From assembly GCA_031254335.1 (NCBI GenBank), contig JAIRUP010000005.1:1-32000 (forward strand): a stretch of DNA of 32,000 nucleotides. The letters are read 5' to 3'. Under the pieces are notes generated by a model, which saw only the letters and a program-made list of their open reading frames with translations, was not told the DNA's origin and searched no databases. How positions within the stretch are numbered: the first letter of the stretch is position 1; each line of letters opens with the position of its first letter. The DNA comes from Rickettsiales bacterium (GTDB lineage Bacteria; Pseudomonadota; Alphaproteobacteria; Rs-D84). This document shows positions 1,939-32,000 of the stretch, in pieces. The translations under genes and the position numbers were made by a program.

Positions 1939-1947
1939 CTTCCCTCT

Positions 1948-1989
1948 ATTGTCATTCTCGGGCTTGACCCGAGAATCCAGGTAATAAAC
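1948..1989 (+). repeat. H-hairpin repeat copy H2
   Basis: ATTGTCAT-TCTCGGG-CTTGA-CCCGAGA-ATCCAGGTAATAAAC. It has the same flanks and loop as H4 (rc 22121-22157), but the stem is TCTCGGG/CCCGAGA instead of GGTCGGG/CCCGACC. Confidence 0.65.
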
Positions 1990-2202: not shown

Positions 2203-2218
2203 CAAACCTCAAAAAATA

Positions 2219-3313
<1,095 letters not shown>

Positions 3314-3372: not shown

Positions 3373-3415
3373 CATTTCACATGAAATGGACAATAAGTGC
3401 TTGATTTTAGCTGAT
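3373..3415 (+). repeat. 43-nt module, copy 2, including parS-like site C (3373-3388), upstream of rsmG
   Basis: CATTTCACATGAAATG is a 7-2-7 palindrome and the exact reverse complement of site A. It is followed by GACAATAAGTGCTTGATTTTAGCTGAT and ends 13 nt before the rsmG ATG. Confidence 0.75.
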
Positions 3416-3428
3416 ACAGGAAAAAATA

Positions 3429-3986: not shown

Positions 3987-4104
3987 ATCTCCCAAAATTA
4001 GCCAATATATACTAGTGATAGTTGATAACATTTTATTATTCTAACAAATGTGCTAGGATTATAATCATAGGCAATTCAGTCTATGAAACAAAAGGGAAAA
4101 CACA

Positions 4105-4440
4105 ATGAATAACACGGAGCATAATTTCAACCGATTCGCGGACGCGGACGCGCTTTGGTTTTGGTTCGTCGCAAGCAAGCGCATAAAGACAGGCTTTATG
4201 GCGAGATACGCCGGCGGGGCGAACCGCCCGTGCGAAATCCTGGACATGGAGGTCTTGATGACAAGGCTGAACCTGTCGGGGAAATTGCCGAACGCGGCCT
4301 TGAATGTCCTGACGCGATACGGGTTCTTGCGGCGCGCGCCGAACAAAAACCTTCGGCACGAGGAAAAGGACGCGGCGGCTTGGGAAGGCGCGATGGAAAC
4401 CATAACGGCGGCGGCCAAAGCGAAAGGATGGTTGGAATGA
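4105..4440 (+). CDS. Hypothetical 111-aa protein on the islet; possible HTH, unverified
   Basis: The ORF has an AAGGGA SD and a perfect TATAAT at 4060-4065 upstream. I recognise no family. The C-terminal half (LSGKLPNAALNVLTRYGF) is HTH-like by eye only. Confidence 0.45.
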   Translation: MNNTEHNFNRFADADALWFWFVASKRIKTGFMARYAGGANRPCEILDMEVLMTRLNLSGKLPNAALNVLTRYGFLRRAPNKNLRHEEKDAAAWEGAMETITAAAKAKGWLE

Positions 4441-4479
4441 TAAAAGTAAGAAGGATGAAGGCAGAGGGAAGAAGGGTTG

Positions 4480-4649
4480 ATAATTATATAAGTCCCGAAA
4501 AATCCAGGCGCAATCGCGTTTTCGAGGACAGATTGTTCAATGCGAAGGAAAACCGCCGCGCGTCTAGGCTGACCGCCTGCGAAGGCGGTTTTCCAAGCAA
4601 GTGGACAATATGGACCGAAAACGAAAAATTGCGCCAAGGATTTTTTGAC
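4480..4649 (+). repeat. E-repeat copy E6 (degenerate; boundaries approximate)
   Basis: The interior aligns with E1. Stems: GCGCAAT...CGTTTTCG / CGAAAACG...ATTGCGC and GGAAAACCGCC/GGCGGTTTTCC, with an apical AGGC-TGACC-GCCT and GCGAAGG. The termini are eroded (ATAATTATATAAG ... GGATTTTTTGAC). Confidence 0.55.
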
Positions 4650-4884
4650 TGTTCGTATTTGATTGGATTCACTCCGAATACAAGGCGCAGACTCGTCCGG
4701 GTTTTTTGTAGAAAATACCGGCATTGCGCGGTTGTTGACTTGGAGAACATGATTCTAATCCAAATCGGAATCGACGGGGTCCGTCTGGTCCGAATAGACG
4801 CGGGCGGGCTGGGCAGGCTTGCCGCGCATGGCTGGGTGTTCGTCTTGGCGAAACCGCGCCGCAGCCCGAAGGGCGGAGGCGGGG

Positions 4885-4908
4885 CGCAGTTCAATATATT
4901 GAACTGCG
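4885..4908. promoter_or_regulatory. 24-bp perfect palindrome, candidate operator or recombination site
   Basis: CGCAGTTCAATA|TATTGAACTGCG has exact 12-bp arms. It lies about 90-140 bp upstream of the two panA-proximal promoters. Confidence 0.4.
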
Positions 4909-4972
4909 TCGGCTTCGCGAAGCGGTGCCTGGGAATCCGCAACCCGTTTATCCTGACGCCGCTGGACTTGTA

Positions 4973-5001
4973 TAGACATCTAGTAAAAAATATGATATAA
5001 T
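4973..5001 (+). promoter_or_regulatory. Sigma70-type promoter P1 with extended -10
   Basis: TAGACA, 17 nt, TGaTATAAT. The TG is at 4993-4994 and the TATAAT at 4996-5001. Confidence 0.55.
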
Positions 5002-5021
5002 CAGAAAAAGGAGAGGGGTTC

Positions 5022-5050
5022 TTGACTTGCAAAAGAACTATTCCTATAAT
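5022..5050 (+). promoter_or_regulatory. Near-consensus sigma70 promoter P2 for the Panacea/toxin operon
   Basis: TTGACT (5022-5027), a 17-nt spacer, then TATAAT (5045-5050). It ends 19 nt before the ATG at 5069. Confidence 0.65.
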
Positions 5051-5068
5051 CGGGTCAGGTAATAAGAA

Positions 5069-5620
5069 ATGTCGATAAGATTCAATACAAACACTCGCAA
5101 AGCCCTTGAAGCTATAATATACTTGGCCAATAAAAAAGCCGATATGACGCAGTATTACTTTATGAAAATGATATTTTTCGCGGAAAAATATCATATAAAC
5201 AAATACGGAATTCCAATCATAGGCGACAGATATATAAAAATGGACAATGGTCCTGTCCCGTCCTTTGTGCTCGACGCAATCCGCCTTGACGGAGCTAAAC
5301 TTACGCACGATATATACGAGGAAATAAACAAGTCTTTGGATTTCAGGAAGGATTCAAAAAAAATCCACACTTCGGCAAAGCGCAAGCCGGACCTGTCTTT
5401 TCTATCGTCCACAAACTTGGAATGCCTGGACAAGGCGTTCAATTTATGCAAGGCCAAATCATTTGATGAATTAAAAAATCTTACGCACGAGGAAACCGCT
5501 TGGAAAAAAGCCGTTCGCAACAGGGATATGGACTACGCGTTGTTCGTTGACGACAACCATCCTGACAAAGAAATCATCGTGGCGGACCTATCGGACAACT
5601 TCGGCACATTGGTTCTGTGA
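5069..5620 (+). CDS. Panacea-domain (DUF4065, SocA/GepA-like) putative antitoxin
   Basis: 183 aa. YFMKMIFFAEKYHINKYGIPIIGDRYIKMDNGPVPSFVLDAI fits my recollection of the DUF4065 core (K-hh-Y-a-..-G.P.. then GPV.P.V). The gene is AT-rich relative to its neighbours. Confidence 0.7.
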   Translation: MSIRFNTNTRKALEAIIYLANKKADMTQYYFMKMIFFAEKYHINKYGIPIIGDRYIKMDNGPVPSFVLDAIRLDGAKLTHDIYEEINKSLDFRKDSKKIHTSAKRKPDLSFLSSTNLECLDKAFNLCKAKSFDELKNLTHEETAWKKAVRNRDMDYALFVDDNHPDKEIIVADLSDNFGTLVL

Positions 5621-5621
5621 T

Positions 5622-6002
5622 ATGCTGTTTAAGACCGGGCGTATTTACCATTTCACGCCCTGTCGGGCTTCCAATCCTGAAAAGAACAAATATGCGATAT
5701 GTGTTTCTGGGAAAAATAACTGGTTTTTCCTTATAAATTCATGTTCTGATACGCCCCCTGTAAGGCCCTATAAGCACGAGACTGATAGGGTGGCTTATCT
5801 AAACAAATTTCAAGTTCAACCTTTAAGCAAACGCTCTTATGTTAATATTTCGATGCTGAAAACCATATACGACTCCGATTATGATTCTTGCAAAGAATAT
5901 GATAAGGTCAGCAATATGGTATGGCTGGATATAAAACAGCTTTGTATTAAGATACTTCCGGCCCAGTCCAGCGAAGTAATATCGGCTGAAAAAGTAGTCT
6001 AA
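5622..6002 (+). CDS. Candidate toxin partner (126 aa); distant MazF/PemK-like pattern, unverified
   Basis: The ATG lies 1 nt after the upstream TGA (TGAtATG). It is in frame within track ORF 5547-6002. GRIYHF..(11)..KYAICVS...WFFLINS...LSKRSYVNISMLKTI...KVSNMVWLDIKQL parallels MazF GDLIWVDF..RPAVVLS...CVPCTT...ADQVKSI...TVAPEELQLIK by eye. Confidence 0.5.
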   Translation: MLFKTGRIYHFTPCRASNPEKNKYAICVSGKNNWFFLINSCSDTPPVRPYKHETDRVAYLNKFQVQPLSKRSYVNISMLKTIYDSDYDSCKEYDKVSNMVWLDIKQLCIKILPAQSSEVISAEKVV

Positions 6003-6165
6003 TAAGCTCAAAAAATATTAGTCAAATCGCAATTTCGAGAATAAAACGCCCAATACCAAGGGAAGGCGACCCAAGTCTGGACATAAGCGTCCGCGAGGGT
6101 CGCCTTCCCGAAGCGTAGTGGGGGTTTTAGGCCGAAATTGAAATATTTGACTTATATTTTTTGTC
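6001..6165 (+). repeat. E-repeat copy E2
   Basis: AATAAGCTCAAAAAATATTAG...TTGACTTATATTTTTTGTC. Stems: TAGTCAAAT/ATTTGACTA, CAATTTCG/CGAAATTG and GGGAAGGCGACCC/GGGTCGCCTTCCC, with an apical GGAC-ATAAGC-GTCC. The left end overlaps the toxin stop codon (6000-6002). Confidence 0.85.
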
Positions 6166-6180
6166 GTATAGTATAACGCG

Positions 6181-7962
6181 ATGAAACATTACGATGTCGT
6201 TATTATAGGCGGGGGGCATGCGGGGGCCGAGGCGGCCGCCGCGGCAAGCCGGCGCGGCGCAAAGGTCGCCCTGATAACCAAATCCCCAGGCGACATCGGC
6301 GCCATGTCGTGCAATCCCTCCATCGGGGGCCTTGGCAAATCCCAGCTTATTGCCGAAATCGATTCCCTTGGCGGCATTATGGGAGCGGCTGCCGACGCAA
6401 GCGGCATTCAGTTCAGAATCCTTAACGCCTCGCACGGGGCGGCGACCCAAGCATTGCGCGCGCAAATCGACAGGCCCCGGTATGCCCGCGCCGTCCTGTC
6501 CGCGCTGGATGGAATCGACATTATTTACGGCGATGTCGCCGGGCTGGATTTGGAAGGGAGAATAGTTGAAGTAATAAATCAGCTCCCCCCATGCGGGGGA
6601 GCCGGCGAGGAACGAGCCGGCGGGGGGTCGAATGCTGAATTCAACCCCCCGCCTGTTCGCGTTCCGCTCACAGACTCCCCCGCAAGGGGGGAGTTGGTTA
6701 AGGCGAAGGCCATTGTAATAAGTGCCGGAACCTTTATGAACGGACTTACCCACATGGGGGCGGACAAAAAACCGTCGGGCCGCATAATGGACAACCTTGA
6801 ATATCAGGACAATGACAAAACCTTGTCCCCGGTTTTGCGGGCCGCGGGATTCGAACTTAAAAGACTTAAAACCGGGACCCCGGCAAGGCTGTTCCGGGAC
6901 TCGATTGACTTCCGGGGCCTGGCCGCCCAGCCGTTGGAACCTTGCGAAGGGGCGCGCTTTTCGAATACGGCAACCCAGCCCAGGGCGGCGAGCGTCGCCA
7001 CCTGTCATATCACCCATACGACCGAAAAAACCGCCGGCATTATCCGCGAAAACATCGGGAAAGCCCCAATGTTCAGCGGCGAAATCGAGGGTATCGGCCC
7101 CCGTTATTGCCCGTCCATCGAGGACAAAATCATGCGCTTCCCGGAGCACCTTTCGCACCATGTCTTCTTGGAGCCGGACGATTTGGAAGGGAGCCTTGTT
7201 TATCCAAACGGCATATCGACTTCGTTCGGGGCCGACATCCAAGACAAGTGGCTTCGGACCATTCCGGGTTTGGAGAATGTCCGCGTCGCCAGATACGGCT
7301 ATGCCGTGGAATACGACGCCATAGACGCGCGGGAACTAAAAACCACCCTGGAATCGAAAAGGATTCCGGGGCTGTTCTTCGCGGGGCAGGTGAACGGCAC
7401 TTCGGGATACGAGGAGGCCGCCGCCCAGGGCCTGGTCGCCGGGGCCAATGCCGCCGCTTTCGCTATTGGCGCGAAGCCCTTGGTCTTGGACCGCGCCAAT
7501 TCCTTTATAGGGGTTTTGATAGACGATATTACGACGCTGGGCGTGGACGAGCCCTACCGGATGTTTTCGTCCCGTTCCGAATACCGCCTGACGCTGCGCT
7601 GCGACAATGCGGTCCAAAGGCTTTGGGGAATTGCGAAGGAATTGGGGCTGCTGACGGCGAAGCAGGGCGAAACGCTTGAAAAAAACATGCCGGGAATCGT
7701 AAAAAAGACAGCTGAAATTGACAAACTGTATTTTGGTTATGTTGGCAAACAATACCAAGACATCGAGAAAATGCGTCAAAATCTGTCGCTGAAAGTGCCA
7801 GTGGCGTTCGATTACATGGATTTGCCCGGCCTGACCCTTGAACTTAGGCAAAAGCTGAACAGGGCGCGCCCGGAGAATATTCATGCTTTGTCCCGAATCC
7901 AGGGCATGACCCCGGCGGGCGTTTTGGTCGTGTTGAGGAAGGTTAAAAGATGCGGTTCATAG
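6181..7962 (+). CDS. mnmG: tRNA U34 5-carboxymethylaminomethyl modification enzyme MnmG (GidA), carrying an internal insertion
   Basis: 593 aa. [16 protein letters not shown] is the FAD-binding motif. [20 protein letters not shown] and [19 protein letters not shown] are MnmG signature blocks. Confidence 0.95.
6580..6696 (+). repeat. 117-bp GC-rich nested palindromic element inserted in frame in mnmG
   Basis: The termini CAGCTCCCCCC and GGGGGGAGTTG are inverted repeats. There are three local hairpins: GCTCCCCC-CATGC-GGGGGAGC, GGCGGGGGG-N17-CCCCCCGCC and ACTCCCCC-GCAAG-GGGGGAGT. The element starts on a codon boundary and encodes [39 protein letters not shown]. Confidence 0.8.
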
Positions 7963-8570
7963 ATTACTATTTTAGCGAGATGCCGAAGCACTTGGATATG
8001 TCCAAACGGTCCGAGCTTTATTCGGTTAATGACTTCACCTTTGCGGTCGCGGTCATCCTGTCCGCTCAGGCTACCGATAAAAAGGTGAATGAAATCGCCC
8101 CGGCCTTGTTCCGCGCCGCGCCGAACCCGGAAAAAATGCTGGAATTGGGGCTGGCGGGTCTTAAAAAACACATAAAGGTCATATCGTTCTTCAACAACAA
8201 GGCCAAAAACATAATGGCCATGTCGCGCATCTTGAAGGGCGGGGCGTTGCCCCGGACCAAAGAGGAATTGATTGCGCTGCCGGGCATTGGCGAAAAGACC
8301 GCGAATGTCATTATGAATGTCCTTTGGGGCGCGCCGCTGATTGGGGTCGATACCCATGTGTTTCGGCTAAGCCGTCGGTTCGGCTGGTCGGACGCGAACA
8401 CTCCCGAAAAGGTCGGCAGGGACTTGGCGCGGGTCGTTCCGAAGAAATATCACGGAATCGTGAATCATGTGATGGTTCTGCACGGAAGGTATATTTGCAG
8501 GGCCCTGCGTCCGAAATGCGCCGAATGCCCCGTCCGTGCGAAATGTCCGTTCAAGGGGAAAACTGTCTAA
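7950..8570 (+). CDS. nth: Endonuclease III (Nth)
   Basis: 206 aa. It has [10 protein letters not shown], the HhH-GPD block [20 protein letters not shown] and the 4Fe-4S motif C-X6-C-X2-C-X5-C ([17 protein letters not shown]). The start overlaps the mnmG end. Confidence 0.92.
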
Positions 8571-10976: not shown

Positions 10977-11222
10977 AATAAACTCAAAAAATATTAGAAA
11001 ATCAGAGCCGATAGGAAATCGTCCGATGCGCAGGAAAGCCTCGGCCCGAGTCTGGCCTTATATGGCCGCGAGGGTGAGGGCGGAACCAGAAAACATGCCG
11101 GGTGGCATGTTTTCCCGCCCGAGCAGAATCCCCGAATCTTTGATTCGGTGGATTCGTTGAAGTTTTCCAAGCAAGCGGGCGATTTATTGCGGCGATTGTT
11201 TTATTTGCTTATATTTTTTGTC
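10977..11222 (+). repeat. E-repeat copy E3 (expanded, 246 bp)
   Basis: It has canonical ends (AATAAACTCAAAAAATATTAG ... GCTTATATTTTTTGTC) and the core GTCTGGCC-TTATAT-GGCCGCGAGGG. About 80 extra bp include the hairpins AAAACATGCC-GGGT-GGCATGTTTT (11090-11113) and CCGAATC-TTTG-ATTCGG. Confidence 0.75.
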
Positions 11223-12058: not shown

Positions 12059-13030
12059 ATGCTTGAAAATATAAAAAGTCTTGAAGAATTGCAAAAGGCC
12101 TATTCCGAAATATTCGGAAAGTCGGGAACCATGACCGCGCGCCTGAAAGATATGAAAAATCTTGGCAACGACGCGCGCGCCGCCCTTAACAAAGAGAATT
12201 CCGAACTGCGCGAGGCCTTCCGTGTCCGCCAGGAGGAACTGGAAAACGAAACCGTGCTGGCGATGTTGTCAGAGCAAAGACTTGACGCCGCCGCCCCGTT
12301 TGATTCCAAACCGCAGGGCGGGGGAAAACTTCATGTGATGACCCAGTCGTTCTATGAAATCGCCAAAATTTTCGAGGGAATGGGCTATGCCTTGCGCACC
12401 GGCCCCGAGATTGAGGACGACTGGCACAACTTCACCGCCCTGAACGCGCCCGAATACCATCCGGCGCGCGACATGCAGGACACATTCTTTGTGGAGGGCG
12501 GAAATGTCATGAGGACCCAGACTTCGGCCGTCCAAATCCGCGCGATGGAAAAGGAAGGCGCGCCGATTAAAATCATCGTCCCGGGAACAACCTATCGCAA
12601 AGAGATGGACGCGACCCATTTCCCGATGTTCCATCAGGTCGAAGGCCTGGTAATCGGGGACGGCATAACTATTTCGAACTTGGTCGCGGACATGAAGACA
12701 TTCGTCAAAATCTATTTCGATATAGCGGAATTGCCAGCCATGCAAATCAGGCCGTCCTATTTCCCCTTCACCGAGCCTTCCATCGAAATGGATGTGAAAT
12801 GGAACAAGAAAACCGGCCGCATAGGCCAAGGCGACGACTGGCTGGAAATCTTCCCGGGCGGCATGGTGCATCCGGCGGTCCTGAGAAATGTCGGCCTGGA
12901 CCCTGATAAAAACCAGGGCTTCGCCTTCGGCTTCGGCTGGGACCGGATGGTCATGCTGAAATACGGCCTGCCGGACGGCCGCAAATTCTACGACAACGAT
13001 ATTCGTTGGTTAAAGGCAAAGGGGTTTTGA
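12059..13030 (+). CDS. pheS: Phenylalanine--tRNA ligase alpha subunit
   Basis: HPARDMQDTFF, FRKE-like YRKEMDATHFPMFHQVEG and FGFGWDRMVML are class II aaRS motifs. I chose the ATG at 12059 with a GAGGAA SD rather than the TTG at 11984. Confidence 0.93.
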   Translation: MLENIKSLEELQKAYSEIFGKSGTMTARLKDMKNLGNDARAALNKENSELREAFRVRQEELENETVLAMLSEQRLDAAAPFDSKPQGGGKLHVMTQSFYEIAKIFEGMGYALRTGPEIEDDWHNFTALNAPEYHPARDMQDTFFVEGGNVMRTQTSAVQIRAMEKEGAPIKIIVPGTTYRKEMDATHFPMFHQVEGLVIGDGITISNLVADMKTFVKIYFDIAELPAMQIRPSYFPFTEPSIEMDVKWNKKTGRIGQGDDWLEIFPGGMVHPAVLRNVGLDPDKNQGFAFGFGWDRMVMLKYGLPDGRKFYDNDIRWLKAKGF

Positions 13031-13031
13031 T

Positions 13032-15326
13032 ATGCGCTGGACTTACAACTGGTTGAAGGAATATTTGGACACCGAAGCGGACGCGAAGCAGGTCGCGGAC
13101 GCGCTTACGAAAATCGGCCTTGAAATCGAGGGGCTTGTCTTTCCAGTCGTGCCAATCGCGGCGAAAATCGTCGAATGTTCCGACATACCCGAAACCCATC
13201 TGCATTTATTGAAAGTCGACGATGGCACTGGCGTTTTGCGCCAGGTCGTATGCGGCGCGCCGAACGCCCGGGCGGGGCTTACCGGGGCCCTTGCGCTGCC
13301 TGGATGCAAAGTCGCCGGCGTGGAAATCAAGGCGGGACGCATCCGCGGATTCGAATCGAACGGCATGATGTGCAGCGAAAAGGAATTGGAAATTTCCGAC
13401 AGCCACGACGGAATAATCGAACTTGAAGACACCGCGCCCGGAACCCCTTTGCGCGCCGCGGACGACGCCGTGTTCGAAGCGAAAATACTTCCCAACCGCC
13501 CGGATTATCTGGCCGTGCGCGGCATAGCCTTGGACCTTGTCGCGGCCGGCCTTGGAAAATTCGGGGACTGTGTTCCAACCGCATTGTCCGGCGCGGCCAA
13601 TCGCAAAGCCGTCATTAAAAGCCCGGCGCGCTGCCTGGTTTATCGCTTGGCCGAAATCGACAATATCGAAATCGCGCCGTCGTGCCGCCTTGTCGCGGAC
13701 CGCCTGGCCGCCATCGGAATCACGCCGCGGAACGCACCCATAGACGCGACGAACTATGTCTGCTATGACCTGGGCCAGCCCATGCATTGCTTCGACGCGG
13801 ACGAGATTTCGGGCGACATAATTATCCGCGACGCCGAAGCCGGCGAGAAATTCGCCGACCTTTTCGGAAAAGAGCATATCTTGGCCGAATCGGATTTGGT
13901 AATCGCCGACGCGGCCGGAATCCTTGCGCTGGCGGGTATTGTGGGCGGTAGCCGCGGCATGACGACGGACAAGACCCGGAACATTATCCTTGAATCCGCT
14001 TGTTTCGAGCCGGTCGGCATAAGGAAGACCGCGCGACGCCTGGGCCTTTCCACCGACGCCAGCTTCCGCTACGAGCGCGGCATAGACCCGACCATTACGG
14101 AAAAATCCTTGGCTGCCTGCGCGCGGATTATCGTGAACGCCTGCGGCGGGGAAATCGTCGGCACATTCGCGGCGGGCGAAAACCCGGCGGACAATCGCAT
14201 TGTGGAATATTCCCCCGCGCTTATGAAGCAAAAGACCGGCGTCGATATGCCCGCAAGCGAACAGAAGGCGATTATCGAAAGATTCGGTTTCAAGGTCGAA
14301 ACGAAGGGGGATGTTTGGAAGATAAAGCCGACCCCGGCGCGCATAGACATCACGATTCCCGAAGCCATAGTGAGCGACCTTATAAGAATCTACGGATACG
14401 ACAATATAAGGGTCGGCGGCGTCAAACTTGCCGATGTGAATCCGTCTTTCCAGGAACTGAATATCAAGTCATTCCTGGCGGGGCGCGGCTTGTCCGAAAT
14501 CCGCCCTTATAAATTCGGCGATTCGAAGAAGGAAAAGCTGCTGGGCGGCCGCCCGAGCGTCATGGTGGTGAATCCTATTATAGACACCTTTGACACGGCG
14601 CGGAATTCGCTGGTGCAGGGCATGCTGGACACCGTCGCGGACAACGATAGATGGAAGCGTTCCAACCTTAATTTGTTTGAACTCGGCGTCGTGTTCGACG
14701 GCAACCGACCCGGCGACCAGCACGAGCAGCTGATAATCGCCCGCACCGGTGTTTTCGGCGAAAATATCGGGACGAAACACGGCCGCCTGGTCGAAATCTA
14801 TGATGTCCGCGCGGATTTGCTTGCGCTTTTCCCGGGGGCGTCGGTTCGGAACCATGCCAACCCGCCCGAATGGGCGCATCCGTTCCGCGCCGGGGAAATT
14901 GTTGCCGCAGGCGCGGCGGTCGCCGAATTCGCCGAGCTGCACCCCGCCGTCGCCAAAAAATTCGGTATAAAAACGCGCGTCGTTTTGGGCCTTGTGGACG
15001 ACGCCGCGAAGATTCCCGCCCAGCCGGAAGCGCGGCTTGTCATGAATGCGGAGAACGACCCGTCGAACGAGTTCCCGGACTTCCCGCTGATTACGCGCGA
15101 CTTTGCCTTCATTACGGACGACGAGGCCGGACTGCTCGCCGCCGTGAAGGACTTGGCCTATGAGGCGAATGTCTTCGACACCTTCCTTATGCCGGACGGG
15201 AAAAAATCGGTCGCCATAGAATTGGTTGTCCAGCCGGCCGCCAATATGACGGACGCGGCCCTGGCCGAATTCCAAAACAAGGTTGTCGCGGCGGCGGAAA
15301 AAACCGGGGCCAAGCTCAGGTCGTAG
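13032..15326 (+). CDS. pheT: Phenylalanine--tRNA ligase beta subunit
   Basis: 764 aa. MRWTYNWLKEYLD is the typical N-terminus. It includes the tRNA-binding OB block (VVCGAPNA, GMMCSEKEL) and lies immediately downstream of pheS. Confidence 0.93.
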   Translation: MRWTYNWLKEYLDTEADAKQVADALTKIGLEIEGLVFPVVPIAAKIVECSDIPETHLHLLKVDDGTGVLRQVVCGAPNARAGLTGALALPGCKVAGVEIKAGRIRGFESNGMMCSEKELEISDSHDGIIELEDTAPGTPLRAADDAVFEAKILPNRPDYLAVRGIALDLVAAGLGKFGDCVPTALSGAANRKAVIKSPARCLVYRLAEIDNIEIAPSCRLVADRLAAIGITPRNAPIDATNYVCYDLGQPMHCFDADEISGDIIIRDAEAGEKFADLFGKEHILAESDLVIADAAGILALAGIVGGSRGMTTDKTRNIILESACFEPVGIRKTARRLGLSTDASFRYERGIDPTITEKSLAACARIIVNACGGEIVGTFAAGENPADNRIVEYSPALMKQKTGVDMPASEQKAIIERFGFKVETKGDVWKIKPTPARIDITIPEAIVSDLIRIYGYDNIRVGGVKLADVNPSFQELNIKSFLAGRGLSEIRPYKFGDSKKEKLLGGRPSVMVVNPIIDTFDTARNSLVQGMLDTVADNDRWKRSNLNLFELGVVFDGNRPGDQHEQLIIARTGVFGENIGTKHGRLVEIYDVRADLLALFPGASVRNHANPPEWAHPFRAGEIVAAGAAVAEFAELHPAVAKKFGIKTRVVLGLVDDAAKIPAQPEARLVMNAENDPSNEFPDFPLITRDFAFITDDEAGLLAAVKDLAYEANVFDTFLMPDGKKSVAIELVVQPAANMTDAALAEFQNKVVAAAEKTGAKLRS

Positions 15327-17072: not shown

Positions 17073-17097
17073 ATCGCGCTCCGCGCGATAGTTTGGA

Positions 17098-17133
17098 ACA
17101 ATCTGAGATTCCCGTCTCCGCGGGAATGACAAT
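17098..17133 (-). repeat. H-hairpin repeat copy H3
   Basis: The reverse complement reads ATTGTCAT-TCCCG-CGGAGA-CGGGA-ATCTCAGATTGT. Confidence 0.65.
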
Positions 17134-17142
17134 TTAATAAAT

Positions 17143-17306
17143 AATAAACTCAAAAAATATAAGCAACGCCGCAAATTCGATGAATAATCGTCCGATACCA
17201 AGGGAAGGCGGCCCGAATGTGGACTTGCCGTCCCTGAGGCGTCGCCTGACCGCCGGTAGCGGACGATTAGGCGCGAATTTGAAAATCGTTGCTTATATTT
17301 TTTGTC
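17143..17306 (+). repeat. E-repeat copy E4
   Basis: AATAAACTCAAAAAATATAAG...GTTGCTTATATTTTTTGTC. Stems: TAAGCAACG/CGTTGCTTA, CAAATTCG/CGAATTTG and AATCGTCCG/CGGACGATT, with an apical GGAC-TTGCC-GTCC. It ends 1 nt from the argS stop codon. Confidence 0.85.
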
Positions 17307-17307
17307 T

Positions 17308-18981
17308 TTACATCTCGCTTGGGATTTGCATGCCGAGCAAGTCAATTGCGACGGTCAGGACGCGGAGGGAAATTGCGACCACCGCCTTCCTGTGCGGGTC
17401 GTCCGACTTCAATATCGGATAATTGTGGTAGTAATTGTTGACGGCCTGCGCCAAGTCATAGGCGTAATTCGCAAGCAGCTCGGTCTGGTATGTTTCCGCC
17501 GCCTTTGACACCGTCCTGTCGAAATCGTTCAGCATCATAATCAGGGCGCGTTCTCCCGCTCCGTCTATTTTGTCCCCGAATTCGCATTTGCTGAAATCCT
17601 CCCCGGCCTTGGCCTGGATTGCAAGAAGGCGCACCGCCGTATAAAGCACCCCCGCGCCGGTCCTTCCCTCGAAGCTGGTTAGCACGGCCGGCTCGAACAC
17701 ATAATTGTCCATCATTCCGTGCGCCAAATCATTGAATTTAAGCGCGGATACGGCGATTTTGCGCATATCCCCCGCCGAAATATCCTTTCCGCTCTCCTGG
17801 ACGCGTTTTTGGACTGCCTGGACGGTCATTTCCACTATCCCCCGGATGGACGGCGTGCCGCCGTCCCTGGTCTTGAAGGGCTTGCCGTCAGAACCGTTCA
17901 CGGTTCCATAGCCCAAATGCGTTAATTTCGCGTCTGAAAGCCCGGCGCGCCGCGCGACGGCGAACAACTGTTTGAAATGAAGGTTCTGCCTGAAATCGGT
18001 TATATAAAGCAGTTCGTCGGGCTTGTCGTCCCGGCTCCGATAGTAAATCGCGCCCAAATCCGTCGCGGCGTATGTGTCCGTCCCGTGCGATGTCTTGAAG
18101 AGAAGCGGCGGGGTGTTTTCGTCTATGCGGACTATTTCCGCGCCCTGGTCCTTTTCCAAAAGGTTTTTCACTCGAAGGATTTTTTCGACATCGGACACGA
18201 AGCCGGACGCGTATTTTTCCCCCTGCCATTTGTCGAACGGTATGACATTCATGCCTTCTATGATTTCCCGGGCGTCCTTCATGGTTATATTCCGGAACCA
18301 TTCGTAGATTTTGGAATATTCGGGATTGCCGCTTTGGAAAAGGGCGGTTATCTTTTGGGCGCGAGCGTTCCAGTCGGGGTCGGCTTTGGACAGCTCGGAC
18401 GCCTCGGGATAAAACTTGTTCAGCTCGTCCGCGGTAAGCGCGTCCGGCATTCCGTTCGGATATTTTTCCATAAGAATCGCTATGACCTTTCCCATCGGCA
18501 GGCCCCAGTCGCCGAGATGGTTGTAGGCGACCGTCTTATGTCCGGCCGCGCGGAGGATTCGGTTTAAGACATCGCCGACGATTAAGGCGCGAAGGTTTCC
18601 CATGTGCGCGCTTTTGGCGATATTGAAGCTGGCGTAATCCATGTCGATTTTTTTGGGCGCGGCGGCTTGGGTGATTTCGTCCGCGCGGCGCGCGGCGTCC
18701 AGCAAAAATTTATCGGTTAAAACGATATTCACGAATCCGGGCTTGGCGATTGACGCGGAGCTTACCTCGGGCATGAGGGTAAGTTCGATTGCGAGTTCCG
18801 CCGCCAAGTCCATGGGATTCGTCCCGAGGGTTTTCGCGGCCGTCATGGCGATATTGGTGGCGTAATCGCCGAAATCGGGATTTTTGGCGGCCTCGAACGC
18901 GATTTTTTGGACGATTTCGGCGGGGTATTTGCAAAGCAGAACTTTTTTCGCCGATTCCGATAAGACAAATGGGATGTTCAT
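17308..18981 (-). CDS. argS: Arginine--tRNA ligase
   Basis: 557 aa. It has an HIGH-type motif (AKSAHMGNLR), an anticodon-binding C-terminus ending in M, and the typical ArgRS blocks DFGDYATN and ITDFRQ..HF. Confidence 0.93.
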   Translation of the reverse strand: MNIPFVLSESAKKVLLCKYPAEIVQKIAFEAAKNPDFGDYATNIAMTAAKTLGTNPMDLAAELAIELTLMPEVSSASIAKPGFVNIVLTDKFLLDAARRADEITQAAAPKKIDMDYASFNIAKSAHMGNLRALIVGDVLNRILRAAGHKTVAYNHLGDWGLPMGKVIAILMEKYPNGMPDALTADELNKFYPEASELSKADPDWNARAQKITALFQSGNPEYSKIYEWFRNITMKDAREIIEGMNVIPFDKWQGEKYASGFVSDVEKILRVKNLLEKDQGAEIVRIDENTPPLLFKTSHGTDTYAATDLGAIYYRSRDDKPDELLYITDFRQNLHFKQLFAVARRAGLSDAKLTHLGYGTVNGSDGKPFKTRDGGTPSIRGIVEMTVQAVQKRVQESGKDISAGDMRKIAVSALKFNDLAHGMMDNYVFEPAVLTSFEGRTGAGVLYTAVRLLAIQAKAGEDFSKCEFGDKIDGAGERALIMMLNDFDRTVSKAAETYQTELLANYAYDLAQAVNNYYHNYPILKSDDPHRKAVVAISLRVLTVAIDLLGMQIPSEM

Positions 18982-22107: not shown

Positions 22108-22120
22108 ATATTGATTATAA

Positions 22121-22157
22121 TAACCTGGATGGTCGGGTCAAGCCCGACCATGACAAT
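22121..22157 (-). repeat. H-hairpin repeat copy H4
   Basis: The reverse complement reads ATTGTCAT-GGTCGGG-CTTGA-CCCGACC-ATCCAGGTTA. Confidence 0.65.
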
Positions 22158-22169
22158 TTAATTGATATT

Positions 22170-22334
22170 AATAAACTCAAAAAATATTAGGCCAATCGCA
22201 ATTTCGAGGATAGATTTTCGAGAAACAAGAAAACCCGGCCGCCGTCTGGACATCGGCGTCCGCGGCGCGTCGGGTTTTCGCAGTTAATCGGAAATATAGA
22301 CCGAAATTGAAATATTGGCCTTATATTTTTTGTC
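22170..22334 (+). repeat. E-repeat copy E5
   Basis: AATAAACTCAAAAAATATTAG...TTGGCCTTATATTTTTTGTC. Stems: TAGGCCAAT/ATTGGCCTA, CAATTTCG/CGAAATTG and GAAAACCCG/CGGGTTTTC, with an apical GGAC-ATCGGC-GTCC. The right end overlaps the stop codon at 22333-22335. Confidence 0.85.
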
Positions 22335-22914
22335 ATTTGCAATTCGACATATAGTCGAAATAGTCGAAGCCGTCGATGTGGCGGTTGCGCAAATCGGCTT
22401 CCATCTCCATCTCGCGCAGGACTATTTGCAGTTCCGGCGAAAGTTCTATTTGCATCGCCATATCGTCCACCGCGTCGCCGGACAGGGGCGCGTGCGGGAC
22501 GGTTTTCGCCGCCGCCGTCAAGGCCTTTTCCAGTTTGTCCTTGAAATCGAACAGTATGGATTGATAGGTTTCGACATGGTCGCTTTCATGCCCCAGGACC
22601 GCGTCCCATTCGCAGGAACCCTTCCTGAACCGCTTGTCGATTCTGATAAGGAAATCGTATTTGATTTCGGCGGCGACGGCGGTCAGGACGACGCATTCCG
22701 CGTTCTGCCCGGTTTCCAGGGTCAGTTTCTTTTGGAATGTCGCAATGACTTCCCCGTATCTGTTGGGTATGGCCTCCGAATTCTTTATTTCCGTTTTGGA
22801 ATCGGGGATTGATACCGAAACCGAAACGGGTCCCTTCGAGCAGAAAGTGCGCTTGGCCTCCGCCGGAATAACATTCATTATCGCAAACAAAATCATAATT
22901 ATTCTAACAATCAT
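22333..22914 (-). CDS. Secreted hypothetical protein with HExxH motif (possibly DUF922-like Zn protease)
   Basis: 193 aa. The N-terminal signal-like segment is MIVRIIMILFAIMNVIPAEA. CEWDAVLGHESDHV contains HESDH. The layout (Cys..W..HExxH) recalls DUF922/COG5661, from memory only. Confidence 0.5.
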   Translation of the reverse strand: MIVRIIMILFAIMNVIPAEAKRTFCSKGPVSVSVSIPDSKTEIKNSEAIPNRYGEVIATFQKKLTLETGQNAECVVLTAVAAEIKYDFLIRIDKRFRKGSCEWDAVLGHESDHVETYQSILFDFKDKLEKALTAAAKTVPHAPLSGDAVDDMAMQIELSPELQIVLREMEMEADLRNRHIDGFDYFDYMSNCK

Positions 22915-22930
22915 ATTTATATGCTAAATT

Positions 22931-22967
22931 ACCTGGATGGTCTTAGTCAACCCCGACTATTGACAAT
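22931..22967 (-). repeat. H-hairpin repeat copy H5 (degenerate)
   Basis: The reverse complement reads ATTGTCAAT-AGTCGGGG-TTGAC-TAAGACC-ATCCAGGT. The flanks are conserved but the stem is decayed. Confidence 0.45.
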
Positions 22968-23020
22968 AATAAATAGGCTCGAAAATTTTTAACGAAATAT
23001 TGAGGTTAAAATTTTTGTCA
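22967..23020 (+). repeat. Possible minimal or decayed E-repeat (termini only)
   Basis: AATAAATAGGCTCGAAAATTTTTAAC-GAAATATTGAG-GTTAAAATTTTTGTCA has E-like ends around a short AT-rich hairpin. The terminal TCA is the virB4 stop codon, the same geometry as E5. Confidence 0.3.
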
Positions 23021-30538: not shown

Positions 30539-32000
30539 ATGAACCTTCTTATAGTCGAATCTCCGGCGAAATCAAAGACAATCGAGAAATACCTGGGGCC
30601 GGACTTCCATGTCCTTGCCAGCATCGGCCATGTCCGGGACCTTGCGCCCGAGGACGGCTCGGTCGACACGGCCAGGAATTTCAAGATGAAATGGCAGATT
30701 ATGCCGGACAAGGAAAAGCAGCTGAAACTTATCGGCGCGGCCCTTAAAAAAGCCGATGCCTTGTATCTTGCGACCGACCAGGACCGCGAAGGGGAAGCCA
30801 TCGCATGGCACCTTTACGAGATTCTGGATTCCCGCGGCGCATTGGCGGGGAAAAAGGTCTATCGCATCACATTCAATGAAATAACCAAGAAGGCGGTCCA
30901 GGCCGCCTTGGAAAAGCCGCGCGAAATCGACCGGAACCTTGTGAACGCGTATTTGGGCCGCCGCGCCTTGGATTACCTTATGGGATTCAATCTGTCGCCG
31001 ATTCTTTGGCGCAAGCTCCCCGGCGCGAAATCGGCGGGCCGCGTCCAATCCGTTGCGCTGGCTTTGATTGTCCAGCGCGAAAAGGAGATTGAGGAATTTA
31101 AGGCGGCCGAATATTGGTCCGTCGATTCGCTTGTCGCGGCGAAAGGCGGCAAATTCAAGGCGCGCCTTAACGAAAACGCCGGGAAGAAAATCGAGAAGAT
31201 GACCCTTGAAAACAAGGCCATGGTGGACGCCGTCCTGAAAAGCCTTGCGCCCGGGGACGCCGCGAAAGTGAAATCGGTCGAGAAAAAGCAGACATCCCGC
31301 CGCCCCGCCGCGCCCTTCACGACTTCGACCTTGCAGCAGGAAGCGTCCAGGAAGCTCCATTTCGGGGCCCAGCGCGCCATGCGTTCCGCCCAAAAGCTCT
31401 ATGAAAAGGGATTCATAACCTATATGCGAACCGACGCCGTCGCCCTTTCCGCCGACGCGGTTTCGGGAATCCGCGATTATATTAAAGGCTCCATCGGTCC
31501 GGCCTATCTGCCTGAAAAGCCGGTCTTTTACGCGAACAAGTCCAAGAACGCCCAGGAGGCGCACGAGGCAATCCGCCCGACCGATTTCGCCCGCAGCTCG
31601 GTCTTGGGGCTGGTCGAGCATTCGGACGAGGAGAAACTCTACGAGCTTATATGGAAGCGCGCGGTGTCTTCCCAAATGGAAAACGCCCGCTTCGATTCCG
31701 TTGTCGTGGATATAGAGCCGGTCAAAAACCCGGGGACCGTATTCCACGCCGTCGGCACGACTCAGACATTCGACGGATTCCTGAAACTCTATCAAGAGGG
31801 CCAGGACGACGCGGAAGATGAAAAAGAAGCGAAATTGCCCGTTCTGGCCGAGGGCGACGCGGTTGTATTGGAGGAATTCCTGCCGGAACAGCATTTTACC
31901 CTGCCGCCGCCCCGGTTTTCCGAGGCTTCATTGGTCAAAAGGCTGGAAGAACTGGGTATCGGCCGCCCTTCGACCTATGCCGCCATCCTTTCGGTCATAG
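30539..32000 (+). CDS. topA: DNA topoisomerase I; 3' end beyond window
   Basis: Absent from the ORF track because there is no stop codon in the window. My translation reads MNLLIVESPAKSKTIEKYLG...ATDQDREGEAIAWH...ITYMRTD...GIGRPSTYA. It shows the Toprim DxD(R)EGE motif and the active-site YMRTD. Confidence 0.93.
   Translation, partial: MNLLIVESPAKSKTIEKYLGPDFHVLASIGHVRDLAPEDGSVDTARNFKMKWQIMPDKEKQLKLIGAALKKADALYLATDQDREGEAIAWHLYEILDSRGALAGKKVYRITFNEITKKAVQAALEKPREIDRNLVNAYLGRRALDYLMGFNLSPILWRKLPGAKSAGRVQSVALALIVQREKEIEEFKAAEYWSVDSLVAAKGGKFKARLNENAGKKIEKMTLENKAMVDAVLKSLAPGDAAKVKSVEKKQTSRRPAAPFTTSTLQQEASRKLHFGAQRAMRSAQKLYEKGFITYMRTDAVALSADAVSGIRDYIKGSIGPAYLPEKPVFYANKSKNAQEAHEAIRPTDFARSSVLGLVEHSDEEKLYELIWKRAVSSQMENARFDSVVVDIEPVKNPGTVFHAVGTTQTFDGFLKLYQEGQDDAEDEKEAKLPVLAEGDAVVLEEFLPEQHFTLPPPRFSEASLVKRLEELGIGRPSTYAAILSVI

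Follow-up and report, generated by a model that had tools for sequence, protein, structure and literature searches.

Palindromic E-repeats contact stop codons with one defined end in an uncultured Rickettsiales lineage

The first 32,000 nucleotides (nt) of contig JAIRUP010000005.1 (assembly GCA_031254335.1) of a Rickettsiales bacterium, referred to here as the window, carry a family of long palindromic repeats, the E-repeats. [quoted passage not shown] Their placement is non-random and nucleotide-precise, far beyond chance. On this reading, they home to gene 3′ ends. Wherever a gene converges on one particular end of an E-repeat, reading GTC, that end lies at the stop codon of the gene, and all copies on one contig share a strand.

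The GTC end of the element and stop codons

Repeat finding, a profile hidden Markov model, and a covariance model were combined to search the window, which contains seven copies of 42-240 nt, all on the + strand and all without an open reading frame (ORF). Another 14 copies are encoded at locus L002, on four Ga0123356 contigs, and on contig Ga0466718_089853 (loci L130 and L132), belonging to three related lineages, and the sample surveyed consists of 21 distinct copies in 118 kb (window plus related loci). Each copy is described here by its GTC end (end A) and its other, CTC end (end B).

The copy E4 (core 17149-17306, + strand; ~17141-17310 with its conserved flanks) is a full-length hairpin of 158 nt with the ends CTCAAAAAATAT...ATATTTTTTGTC and lies between the convergent genes ychF and argS. 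Its GTC end is 1 nt away from the argS stop codon TAA (17308-17310, - strand), and its CTC end is 17 nt from a hairpin of a second type, the H repeat, and 76 nt from the ychF stop. The GTC end of the full-length copy E1 (999-1157, + strand) is separated by 4 nt from the parA stop TGA (1162-1164), CTTA being followed by TCA, and the TGA is followed by an in-frame, element-borne TAA. In the full-length copy E5 (22176-22334, + strand), the TC of the GTC end and the next A form the stop codon of Orf193 (22333-22335), and the stop codon of virB4 (23018-23020) overlaps the GTC of a minimal copy of 42 nt (22978-23019, + strand) that has retained the termini only after an internal deletion. E2 (6007-6165, + strand), again full length, is the only one in the window to contact a stop with its CTC end; an ORF (5547-6002) terminates at 6000-6002 within the conserved TAATAAG flank of E2, which reads TAA TAA G up to the CTC, with the second TAA in frame, and the GTC end of E2 is situated 15 nt before the mnmG ATG. 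Two copies adjoin no stop codon, namely E3 (10983-11222, + strand), a long variant of 240 nt with extra internal hairpins located in the divergent 5′ region between the start of orf790 and rpmI, and the degenerate full-length copy Ex (4494-4648, + strand), which lies away from any stop.

Most of these contacts had been pointed out in an earlier sequence-only reading of the window. The distance of 1 nt between E4 and the argS stop, the location of E4 between convergent genes, the terminal TCA of E5 as a stop codon, and the virB4 stop provided by the minimal copy are all borne out, and Pfam supports the names given to parA, ychF, argS, and virB4. For E1, the contact is confirmed but the distance is 4 nt, including the in-frame TAA, rather than the 3 nt proposed. 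The left end of E2 does coincide with a stop as claimed, but the label “toxin” for the ORF concerned is tentative: this ORF has no Pfam match, though it follows a SocA/Panacea antitoxin gene. The long hairpin with A6 and T6 runs ascribed to each repeat is present in E1 to E5, whereas Ex has A5/T6 and the minimal copy A4/T5. Finally, precise contact with gene ends describes 13 of 21 copies but not E3 and Ex, which had gone unmentioned.

The survey of element-to-stop distances against random expectation that had been suggested at the time reveals an enrichment over the 21 copies in 118 kb. For converging ORFs of at least 60 codons, the GTC end is found at -2 to +4 nt from the stop in 13 of 21 copies, the null expectation being 2.5% per end (P = 3e-16). 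Among the first 15 copies, with ORFs of at least 100 codons, 11 are placed in this way at a null of 1.06% per end (P = 2e-19); at L103, a gene for 61 amino acids (aa) adds a stop contact at 3 nt. With the interval widened to -22 to +4 nt, 15 of the 21 copies have end A at a converging gene's stop. These are 15 of 15 cases in which a gene converges on it, whereas the CTC end abuts a stop in 3 of 8 (Fisher p = 0.0017). Locus L132 was fetched after this rule had been stated and provides six new copies; all three with a converging gene conform (ychF +2, rplT -15, pheS -22 nt), and the three among co-directional genes abut no stop. Five copies are situated between convergent genes (E4, L128, L130a, L130b, and L002a), and in convergent spacers of 36-77 nt (E4, L128, L130a) the element always contacts the stop of one gene, which is why selection alone seems insufficient to explain the placement.

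The elements are polar, scoring ~130-180 bits in the forward but 15-55 bits in the reverse direction. One strand per contig is used in the window (7/7), on Ga0466718_089853 (8/8, L130 and L132 together), and at L002 (2/2), which together give P = 6e-5, and the shared strand is kept with adjacent genes on both strands. The idea, derived from the first 15 copies, that orientation follows the abutting gene is disproved by the six L132 copies, which lie on the same strand among genes of both strands.

Hairpin anatomy and insertion history

E4 forms one long predicted hairpin, with -82.7 kcal/mol for the + strand (z = -9.2) and -76.4 kcal/mol for the - strand (z = -8.9); the stem of ~60 bp is interrupted and extends over 158 nt. 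The terminal inverted repeats read (A)ATAA-R-CTC-A6-TAT at one end of the element and ATA-T6-GTC-CTTA at the opposite end; they extend into the flanks (ATAA.../...CTTA), and therefore both ends read TAA inward. In the sub-family of L130 and L132, the ends are TAATATCGTGC-A6...T6-G(G/T)C. All full copies share one architecture consisting of a terminal A:T helix, a variable helix of 8 bp, conserved asymmetric internal loops, and further helices. The 8-bp helix is wholly different between copies yet complementary (GTCCGCT/AGTGGAC, GTCAAAT/ATTTGAC, GCAACG/CGTTGC, GGCCAAT/ATTGGCC), and the 7 bp beside the T-run are AU-rich.

Covariation was tested on a covariance-model alignment of 13 copies, in which 88.7% of cells form pairs, compared with 72.3% in shuffles, and 46 of 61 pairs have changed on both sides. 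At the level of single cells, 122 have changed on both sides, compared with 36.8 in shuffles (0/500) and with 16-29 for slid partners, controls which carry the same bias as the covariance-model alignment, which favors pairing. The A6:T6 pairs are invariant in 13 of 13 aligned copies, and one-sided (G-U) intermediates are rare. Helices can vary in sequence provided that pairing is kept. On a MAFFT alignment, RNAalifold had failed to detect the hypervariable helix owing to misalignment of the arms, and the covariance-model alignment was used in its place.

The strand on which the model is defined folds better in 13 of 13 copies, and its helices contain 36 G.T versus 13 A.C mismatches (p = 0.0014). 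This strand is G-rich in the window (GC skew +0.028, 14 of 16 sub-windows) and in L132 (+0.129), and would therefore be the lagging-strand template. More tentatively, uniform strand use, together with the better folding of that strand, suggests that in the course of replication E-repeats move or are recognized as folded single-stranded DNA. They also appear to land beside hairpins already present just past stop codons.

Contigs encoding ArgS and MnmG homologs (L126, L128, L130; L132, L133, L134) serve as relative loci for reconstructing insertions, the ArgS identity of the nearest relatives being 64, 55, and 51%; the window ArgS is itself 100% identical to a protein of a Rickettsiales metagenome-assembled genome. 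In L126, L128, and L130, an orf of ~190 aa lies between virB4 and tsaE, and the three genes overlap without spacer. In the window, the minimal copy and an H repeat are located between virB4 and orf193, and E5 and another H repeat between orf193 and tsaE. VirB4 (ending in EYLKQSS), Orf193 (NCK), and ArgS (IPSEM) all stop at the same last residue as their orthologs, that of ArgS being the same in three relatives, and the ATGA stop/start overlap that joins orf and tsaE in L126 and L130 recurs on either side of the E5 plus H insert. L126, L128, and L130 have empty sites in place of E4, E5, and the minimal copy, and L133 and the window are compact at operon sites that are occupied in L132. From spacer-free overlapping orthologs and unchanged C-termini it follows that the stop codon was the site of insertion; copies entered at the extreme 3′ end of the gene, either at the stop codon of the ancestral gene or upstream of it by a few codons. 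In L126, H-type hairpins directly follow argS (5353-5463), the first within 5 nt of the argS TAA, and no E copy is present, and E4 would therefore have entered between the stop and an existing hairpin. In L130, an independent copy is located after argS with its GTC end overlapping the radC stop instead.

Read in frame, the element provides the stop codon and, in some cases, the last codons as well. C-terminal codons are contributed by 2 of 21 copies, L132-4 and L132-5. In L132, L20 ends in AKKS read from the element (12824-12838, GCC AAA AAA TCC TAA), the A-run encoding Lys-Lys and the protein length being unchanged, and the last six residues of PheS give way to nine element-encoded residues, HKRIKNEEQ (11187-11208). 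Gene callers will misplace stops and C-termini at E copies.

Partial E left arms, comprising the first ~37-39 nt, are found in tandem just before full copies at L082 (2062-2142), L113 (3753-3789), L002 (6156-6194), and L132 (~270-303). Each breaks after a GATAA-like motif, and none of the insertion or slippage models tried explains them. A solo left-end fragment, CCTCAAAAAATATTA, occurs in the window (2207-2221, + strand), and the mreB stop codon (2219-2221) is formed by the final bases of this fragment.

Competing explanations and a possible boundary role

Several points weigh against interpreting E-repeats as mobile elements that are recognized as folded single strands and act at transcript ends. 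The relatives are all distant, and no exact empty site is available at nucleotide resolution; moreover, copies are only ~60-80% alike and as such do not show recent mobility. Neither a transposase nor an autonomous partner with matching ends is present in the 118 kb, and gene tables list no transposase Pfam domain. Target-site duplications of TA, TNA/TWA, or TCA, or none at all, were modeled with several boundary definitions, and none of these models fits all copies. Six of 21 copies are without a converging-gene stop at the GTC end; among these, E3 and Ex are the only copies facing no gene end, E2 abuts a stop by its other end, and at least two of the three L132 copies (L132-2 and L132-3) are downstream of a co-directional gene, with the CTC end 57-284 nt from the stop of that gene. 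In three Ga0123356 loci of 4-7 kb, GC skew and orientation are discordant, although skew is judged unreliable at this size because local gene strand dominates it. The better-folding strand, with its G.T excess, is antisense to the mRNA of the abutting gene, unlike what selection on an mRNA 3′ hairpin would predict. A C-to-T bias on the leading strand could account for the G.T excess and the better folding, and covariation could come in part from quasipalindrome correction by template switching rather than from selection. With regard to transcript ends, a consensus terminator scan, by design blind to stems of 60 bp, calls no E copy, the stem is AU-rich beside the U-run, and the convergent pairs nth/orf790 (8567-8570) and pheT/sufBD-like (15316-15326) overlap without spacer or hairpin.

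Among the alternatives, a possible though hardly a likely one is that a single-strand element is moved by an HUH/Y1-type enzyme (IS200/IS605- or RAYT-like). E-repeats would then adopt their fold on the template of the lagging strand and enter, with no duplication, next to hairpins or short AT-rich motifs that lie just past stop codons, and their likeness to terminators would be incidental. The strand-uniform orientation, independent of gene strand, is in line with this, as are the G-rich model strand in the two best-sampled contigs and its better folding in 13 of 13 copies with a G.T excess, although the latter could be mutational and the skew is discordant in the three short loci. The CTC-side flank (AATAA / TAATATCG) is conserved and the GTC-side flank variable, and no clean duplication is seen. 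In ~12 of 21 copies, a count without control for random intergenic positions, the CTC end is located 5-20 nt from a hairpin or partial E arm: an H repeat for E4, E5, and the minimal copy; a hairpin of the terminator type for L130a, L132-2, -3, and -5; and a partial left arm for L082, L113, L002b, and L132-1. This suggests insertion beside structures sitting just past stop codons. However, IS200/IS605 elements have separate subterminal hairpins, whereas the two ends of an E-repeat are complementary and close a single long hairpin, and the gene tables of the 118 kb contain no Y1 or RAYT gene.

It is unlikely that E-repeats are selfish double-strand elements with terminal inverted repeats, moved by a DDE transposase (e.g., IS630/Tc1-like with a TA target) and devoid of host function. 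On that account, the position at stops is what purifying selection leaves in a near-spacerless genome, the TAA-bearing ends rebuilding the stop codon. It would explain small, multi-copy elements with terminal inverted repeats and no ORF, the TA on both flanks in ~10 of 15 copies, and, as the genes of relatives overlap, the small number of permissive sites; Coxiella QMITEs likewise overlap functional genes only at 3′ ends (PMC5896051). Yet a MITE of the DDE type is expected in both orientations, and runs of 7/7 and 8/8 are observed, and in the convergent spacers of E4, L128, and L130a one stop is always touched, the element never lying just anywhere in the spacer. A TA duplication at E4 clashes with the conserved ArgS stop because ancestral ArgS would then have no stop codon, and hypervariable complementary helices with conserved asymmetric loops are unexpected for duplex ends bound by a transposase.

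The sequence-only reading had held that the repeats either target gene 3′ ends or are retained there, and both targeting and retention at gene ends are supported; it had also interpreted the repeats as bidirectional terminators. That they are domesticated intrinsic terminators, kept by the host in order to stop transcription both ways, especially between convergent genes, is improbable, and the symmetric form of the proposal is unsupported. Invariant A- and T-runs do flank a very stable hairpin whose stems are maintained through compensatory change, and five copies are located between convergent genes. In contrast, placement is one-ended (15/15 versus 3/8) and strand-fixed; E5, the minimal copy, E2, E3, and L132-1 to -3 are situated inside former operons or before gene starts; and the other convergent pairs of the window manage with overlaps that lack a hairpin. 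Sites are empty in relatives, and therefore the genes work without the element. A short G+C-rich hairpin (stem up to ~20 bp, loop of 3-8) followed by a T-run, which characterizes an intrinsic terminator, is not found in E copies, the base of whose stem is AU-rich, and terminator-like sites are unenriched in this genome (14 versus 21 expected; 29 versus 23), none of them called in an E copy by a scan that does not see long stems.

It is very improbable that E copies are structured small RNA genes in model orientation, convergent with or antisense to the 3′ end of the abutting gene, since conserved loops with variable helices that resemble a functional RNA, a better-folding strand antisense to the abutting gene, and a -10-like TAAACT conserved just before the A-run (with ATGACA 16 nt upstream of it in E5) are set against no consistent -35, wrong spacing at E4 and the minimal copy, a number of divergent copies (seven in 32 kb) that is atypical of an RNA gene, the rarity of G-U intermediates, and the lack of an Rfam match. 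A self-promoter for E in model orientation was rejected as well, its spacing being inconsistent between copies.

Returning to E-repeats as MITE-like mobile elements, a directional boundary or insulator role for copies in place is plausible. Tentatively, such a copy may act as a one-directional transcript-end module, whose hairpin and U-run terminate, insulate, or are processed. A copy entering between co-oriented or overlapping genes would then persist only if the gene downstream acquired a promoter of its own immediately behind the element, supplied by an H repeat or by the arm of the element itself and often giving a leaderless mRNA.

The H repeat has the layout ATTGTCAT-stem-GGGCTTGACCC-stem-ATCCAGGTAAT, and of its four window copies, three lie at a distance of 12-20 nt from an E copy's CTC end. 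One copy lies at 1943-1988 (+ strand) and another at 17094-17140 (- strand), where it is flanked by the ychF stop and the E4 CTC end. The copy beside the CTC end of E5 (22116-22163, - strand) provides, with its flank, TTGACC-16-TATAAT (11/12), the tsaE ATG following 6 nt after the -10, and the copy beside the CTC end of the minimal copy (22924-22972, - strand) provides TTGACT-18-TAGCAT, with the orf193 ATG likewise 6 nt after the -10. A third promoter-like site, TTGACT-16-TAGTAT (6147-6174, + strand), consists of the right arm of E2 and its flank; the mnmG ATG is again 6 nt after the -10, which is a leaderless geometry. Therewith, two of the predicted promoters are located in an H repeat and one in the E2 arm. 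Sigma-70-like -35/-10 motifs with an ATG 6 nt after the -10 precede 3 of 3 co-oriented downstream genes (mnmG, tsaE, and orf193) versus 1 of 22 others (p = 0.0017). In L132, TTGAAA-16-TATAAT starts 10 nt after a copy in front of orf791, and L002b has a similar promoter-like site. Replicons of Sinorhizobium, Shinella, and Neorhizobium contain multi-copy, unannotated sites that match the H core (29-31 nt) at 100% identity, which gives H the appearance of a REP-like hairpin (CGTC/TGTC-tagged) that is widespread in alphaproteobacteria. That H and E form one composite element was considered and rejected, as relatives have E without H and L126 has H without E.

A more far-reaching version, which we regard as doubtful, is that these strand-specific elements fold on the lagging-strand template, home to gene ends beside hairpins located behind the stop codon, and act as portable transcription-unit boundaries. 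One end would close the upstream gene by stop or last codons, hairpin, and U-run, and the other, aided by H or by the arm of the element, would restart the next gene as a leaderless mRNA. If this were true, overlapping, translationally coupled operons of a reduced genome would be split into separate units.

Known repeat families, distribution, and other features of the window

E-repeats are dispersed, non-coding, shorter than 300 bp, bounded by terminal inverted repeats, and present or absent at orthologous sites, as is characteristic of MITEs. SPRITEs of S. pneumoniae combine AAAA/TTTT ends with a long duplex and a tail rich in U, and are enriched at the 3′ ends of convergent coding sequences (PMC3049150). 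Compared by description, not by sequence, SPRITEs and E-repeats are both small interspersed repeats with inverted ends of A- and T-runs, a long duplex with a U-rich tail, and enrichment near the 3′ ends of coding sequences and convergent genes; for neither is a duplication or transposase established, and for both a terminator role has been proposed but is unproven. However, SPRITEs are ~105 bp long with a duplex of 18 bp, reside in a Firmicute host, and are on the leading strand in 63%, whereas E-repeats have ~158 bp, an interrupted stem of ~60 bp, a 100% uniform strand per contig, heavy compensatory change, and one specific end that touches or supplies the stop codon.

In Coxiella burnetii, all insertions of QMITE1 and QMITE2 into functional genes are at 3′ ends, overlapping the C-terminus by 1-50 bp and changing protein size little (PMC5896051). 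Like E-repeats, they are MITEs at gene 3′ ends in a reduced intracellular bacterium and form stable hairpins, proposed to be RNase III substrates. In contrast, the QMITE host is a gammaproteobacterium, end-specific or strand-uniform placement is not reported, some QMITEs encode peptides or small RNAs, and no sequence similarity is expected. Correia/NEMIS repeats of Neisseria and ERIC/YPAL of enterobacteria are imperfect palindromes of 100-170 bp that are co-transcribed with their neighbors, and Correia hairpins are cut by RNase III and can carry promoters (PMC2229807, PMC3184786). Correia and E-repeats share adjoining promoter-like sites, which E has via H or its own arm, and imperfect palindromy over the full length, but Correia elements have clear 26-bp terminal inverted repeats, a TA duplication, an integration host factor (IHF) site, and both orientations, whereas in E the TA duplication is inconsistent and the orientation fixed. 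Rickettsia palindromic elements (RPEs) are, like E-repeats, palindromic repeats in Rickettsiales, of 100-150 bp, and are able to contribute codons, as E-repeats are; typically, RPEs are inserted in frame inside ORFs, whereas E-repeats are at or after the stop and add C-terminal codons in 2 of 21 copies.

In IS200/IS605, REP/RAYT, and attC systems, folded single strands are recognized, structure is kept over sequence, strand or orientation is biased, and duplication is absent or unclear; attC sites and REPs are often found directly after gene ends, as is E. However, E-repeats have no attC core sites (RYYYAAC / GTTRRRY, where the ends read CTCAAAAAATAT / ATATTTTTTGTC), no nearby integrase, and housekeeping neighbors, are far longer than REPs, and have two ends that pair with each other instead of separate subterminal hairpins as in IS200/IS605; nor has an HUH enzyme been identified for E. 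In this comparison, E-repeats recall single-strand-recognized sites but lack the tested defining features of each family. Small palindromic repeats are common in bacteria, and their gene-end targeting and terminator action have stayed mostly conjectural. In a review of 2024, terminators borne by MITEs are still called “conceivable” (PMC10969869). The E family is an unusually clean case, with a defined end at the stop, fixed orientation, co-varying helices, and operon insertions with leaderless-type promoters, and therefore it is directly testable whether elements are targeted or retained and whether they are terminators or not.

An Rfam search reveals no family for the E-repeat, the lone microRNA match of 20 bits being due to chance. 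A scan for exact termini in 185,579 genomes (one per species) yields one true match, the Rickettsiales metagenome-assembled genome of locus L002, and the same scan, covering termini only, detects E ends in none of the Rickettsia species genomes. In metagenomes, a termini-pattern scan gives ~120 loci with four true copies, all from one sample (Ga0123356); the other loci were rejected as chance matches in AT-rich DNA. A plasmid collection contains matches to the H core only and none to E. By these searches, E-repeats appear confined so far to one uncultured Rickettsiales clade. Logan short-read contigs of the same organism (SRR14710927; L004 and L005) terminate at E copies, L004 spanning tsaE to rplT, i.e., E5 to E3, and E-repeats thus break assemblies.

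Neighboring genes in the window with Pfam support are parA, mreB, gidB, the SocA/Panacea antitoxin gene, mnmG, nth, pheS, pheT, ychF, argS, lpxC, lpxK, tsaE, virB4, virB3, mreC, PBP2, and rodA. In the region 999-2043, parA is followed by E1 with no parB downstream, and L132 (512-2184) has an overlapping parA-parB pair as usual. A region of ~1.1 kb (3987-5068) without convincing gene contains Ex, and two sigma-70-like sites of 11/12 (4973-5001 and 5022-5050) are located just before the gene for the SocA/Panacea antitoxin and its partner of 151 aa. An ORF of 440 aa (30572-31894, - strand) has no Pfam match and is probably spurious, and on the + strand a topA-like N-terminus (MNLLIVESPAKSKTIEKYLG...) begins at 30540 and continues beyond the end of the window (30540-32000). 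The mreB gene (2219-3268, - strand) is flanked by inverted repeats of 49 nt (2123-2171 and 3373-3421) that are 88% complementary and contain CATTTCACATGAAATG palindromes. Its distance of 23 kb from mreC-PBP2-rodA suggests a relocation. MnmG (6181-7962) has 593 aa here and in two relatives, compared with ~547-550 aa in most homologs, and this extra length, together with the GIDA domain being split in two by Pfam, suggests a lineage-specific insertion.

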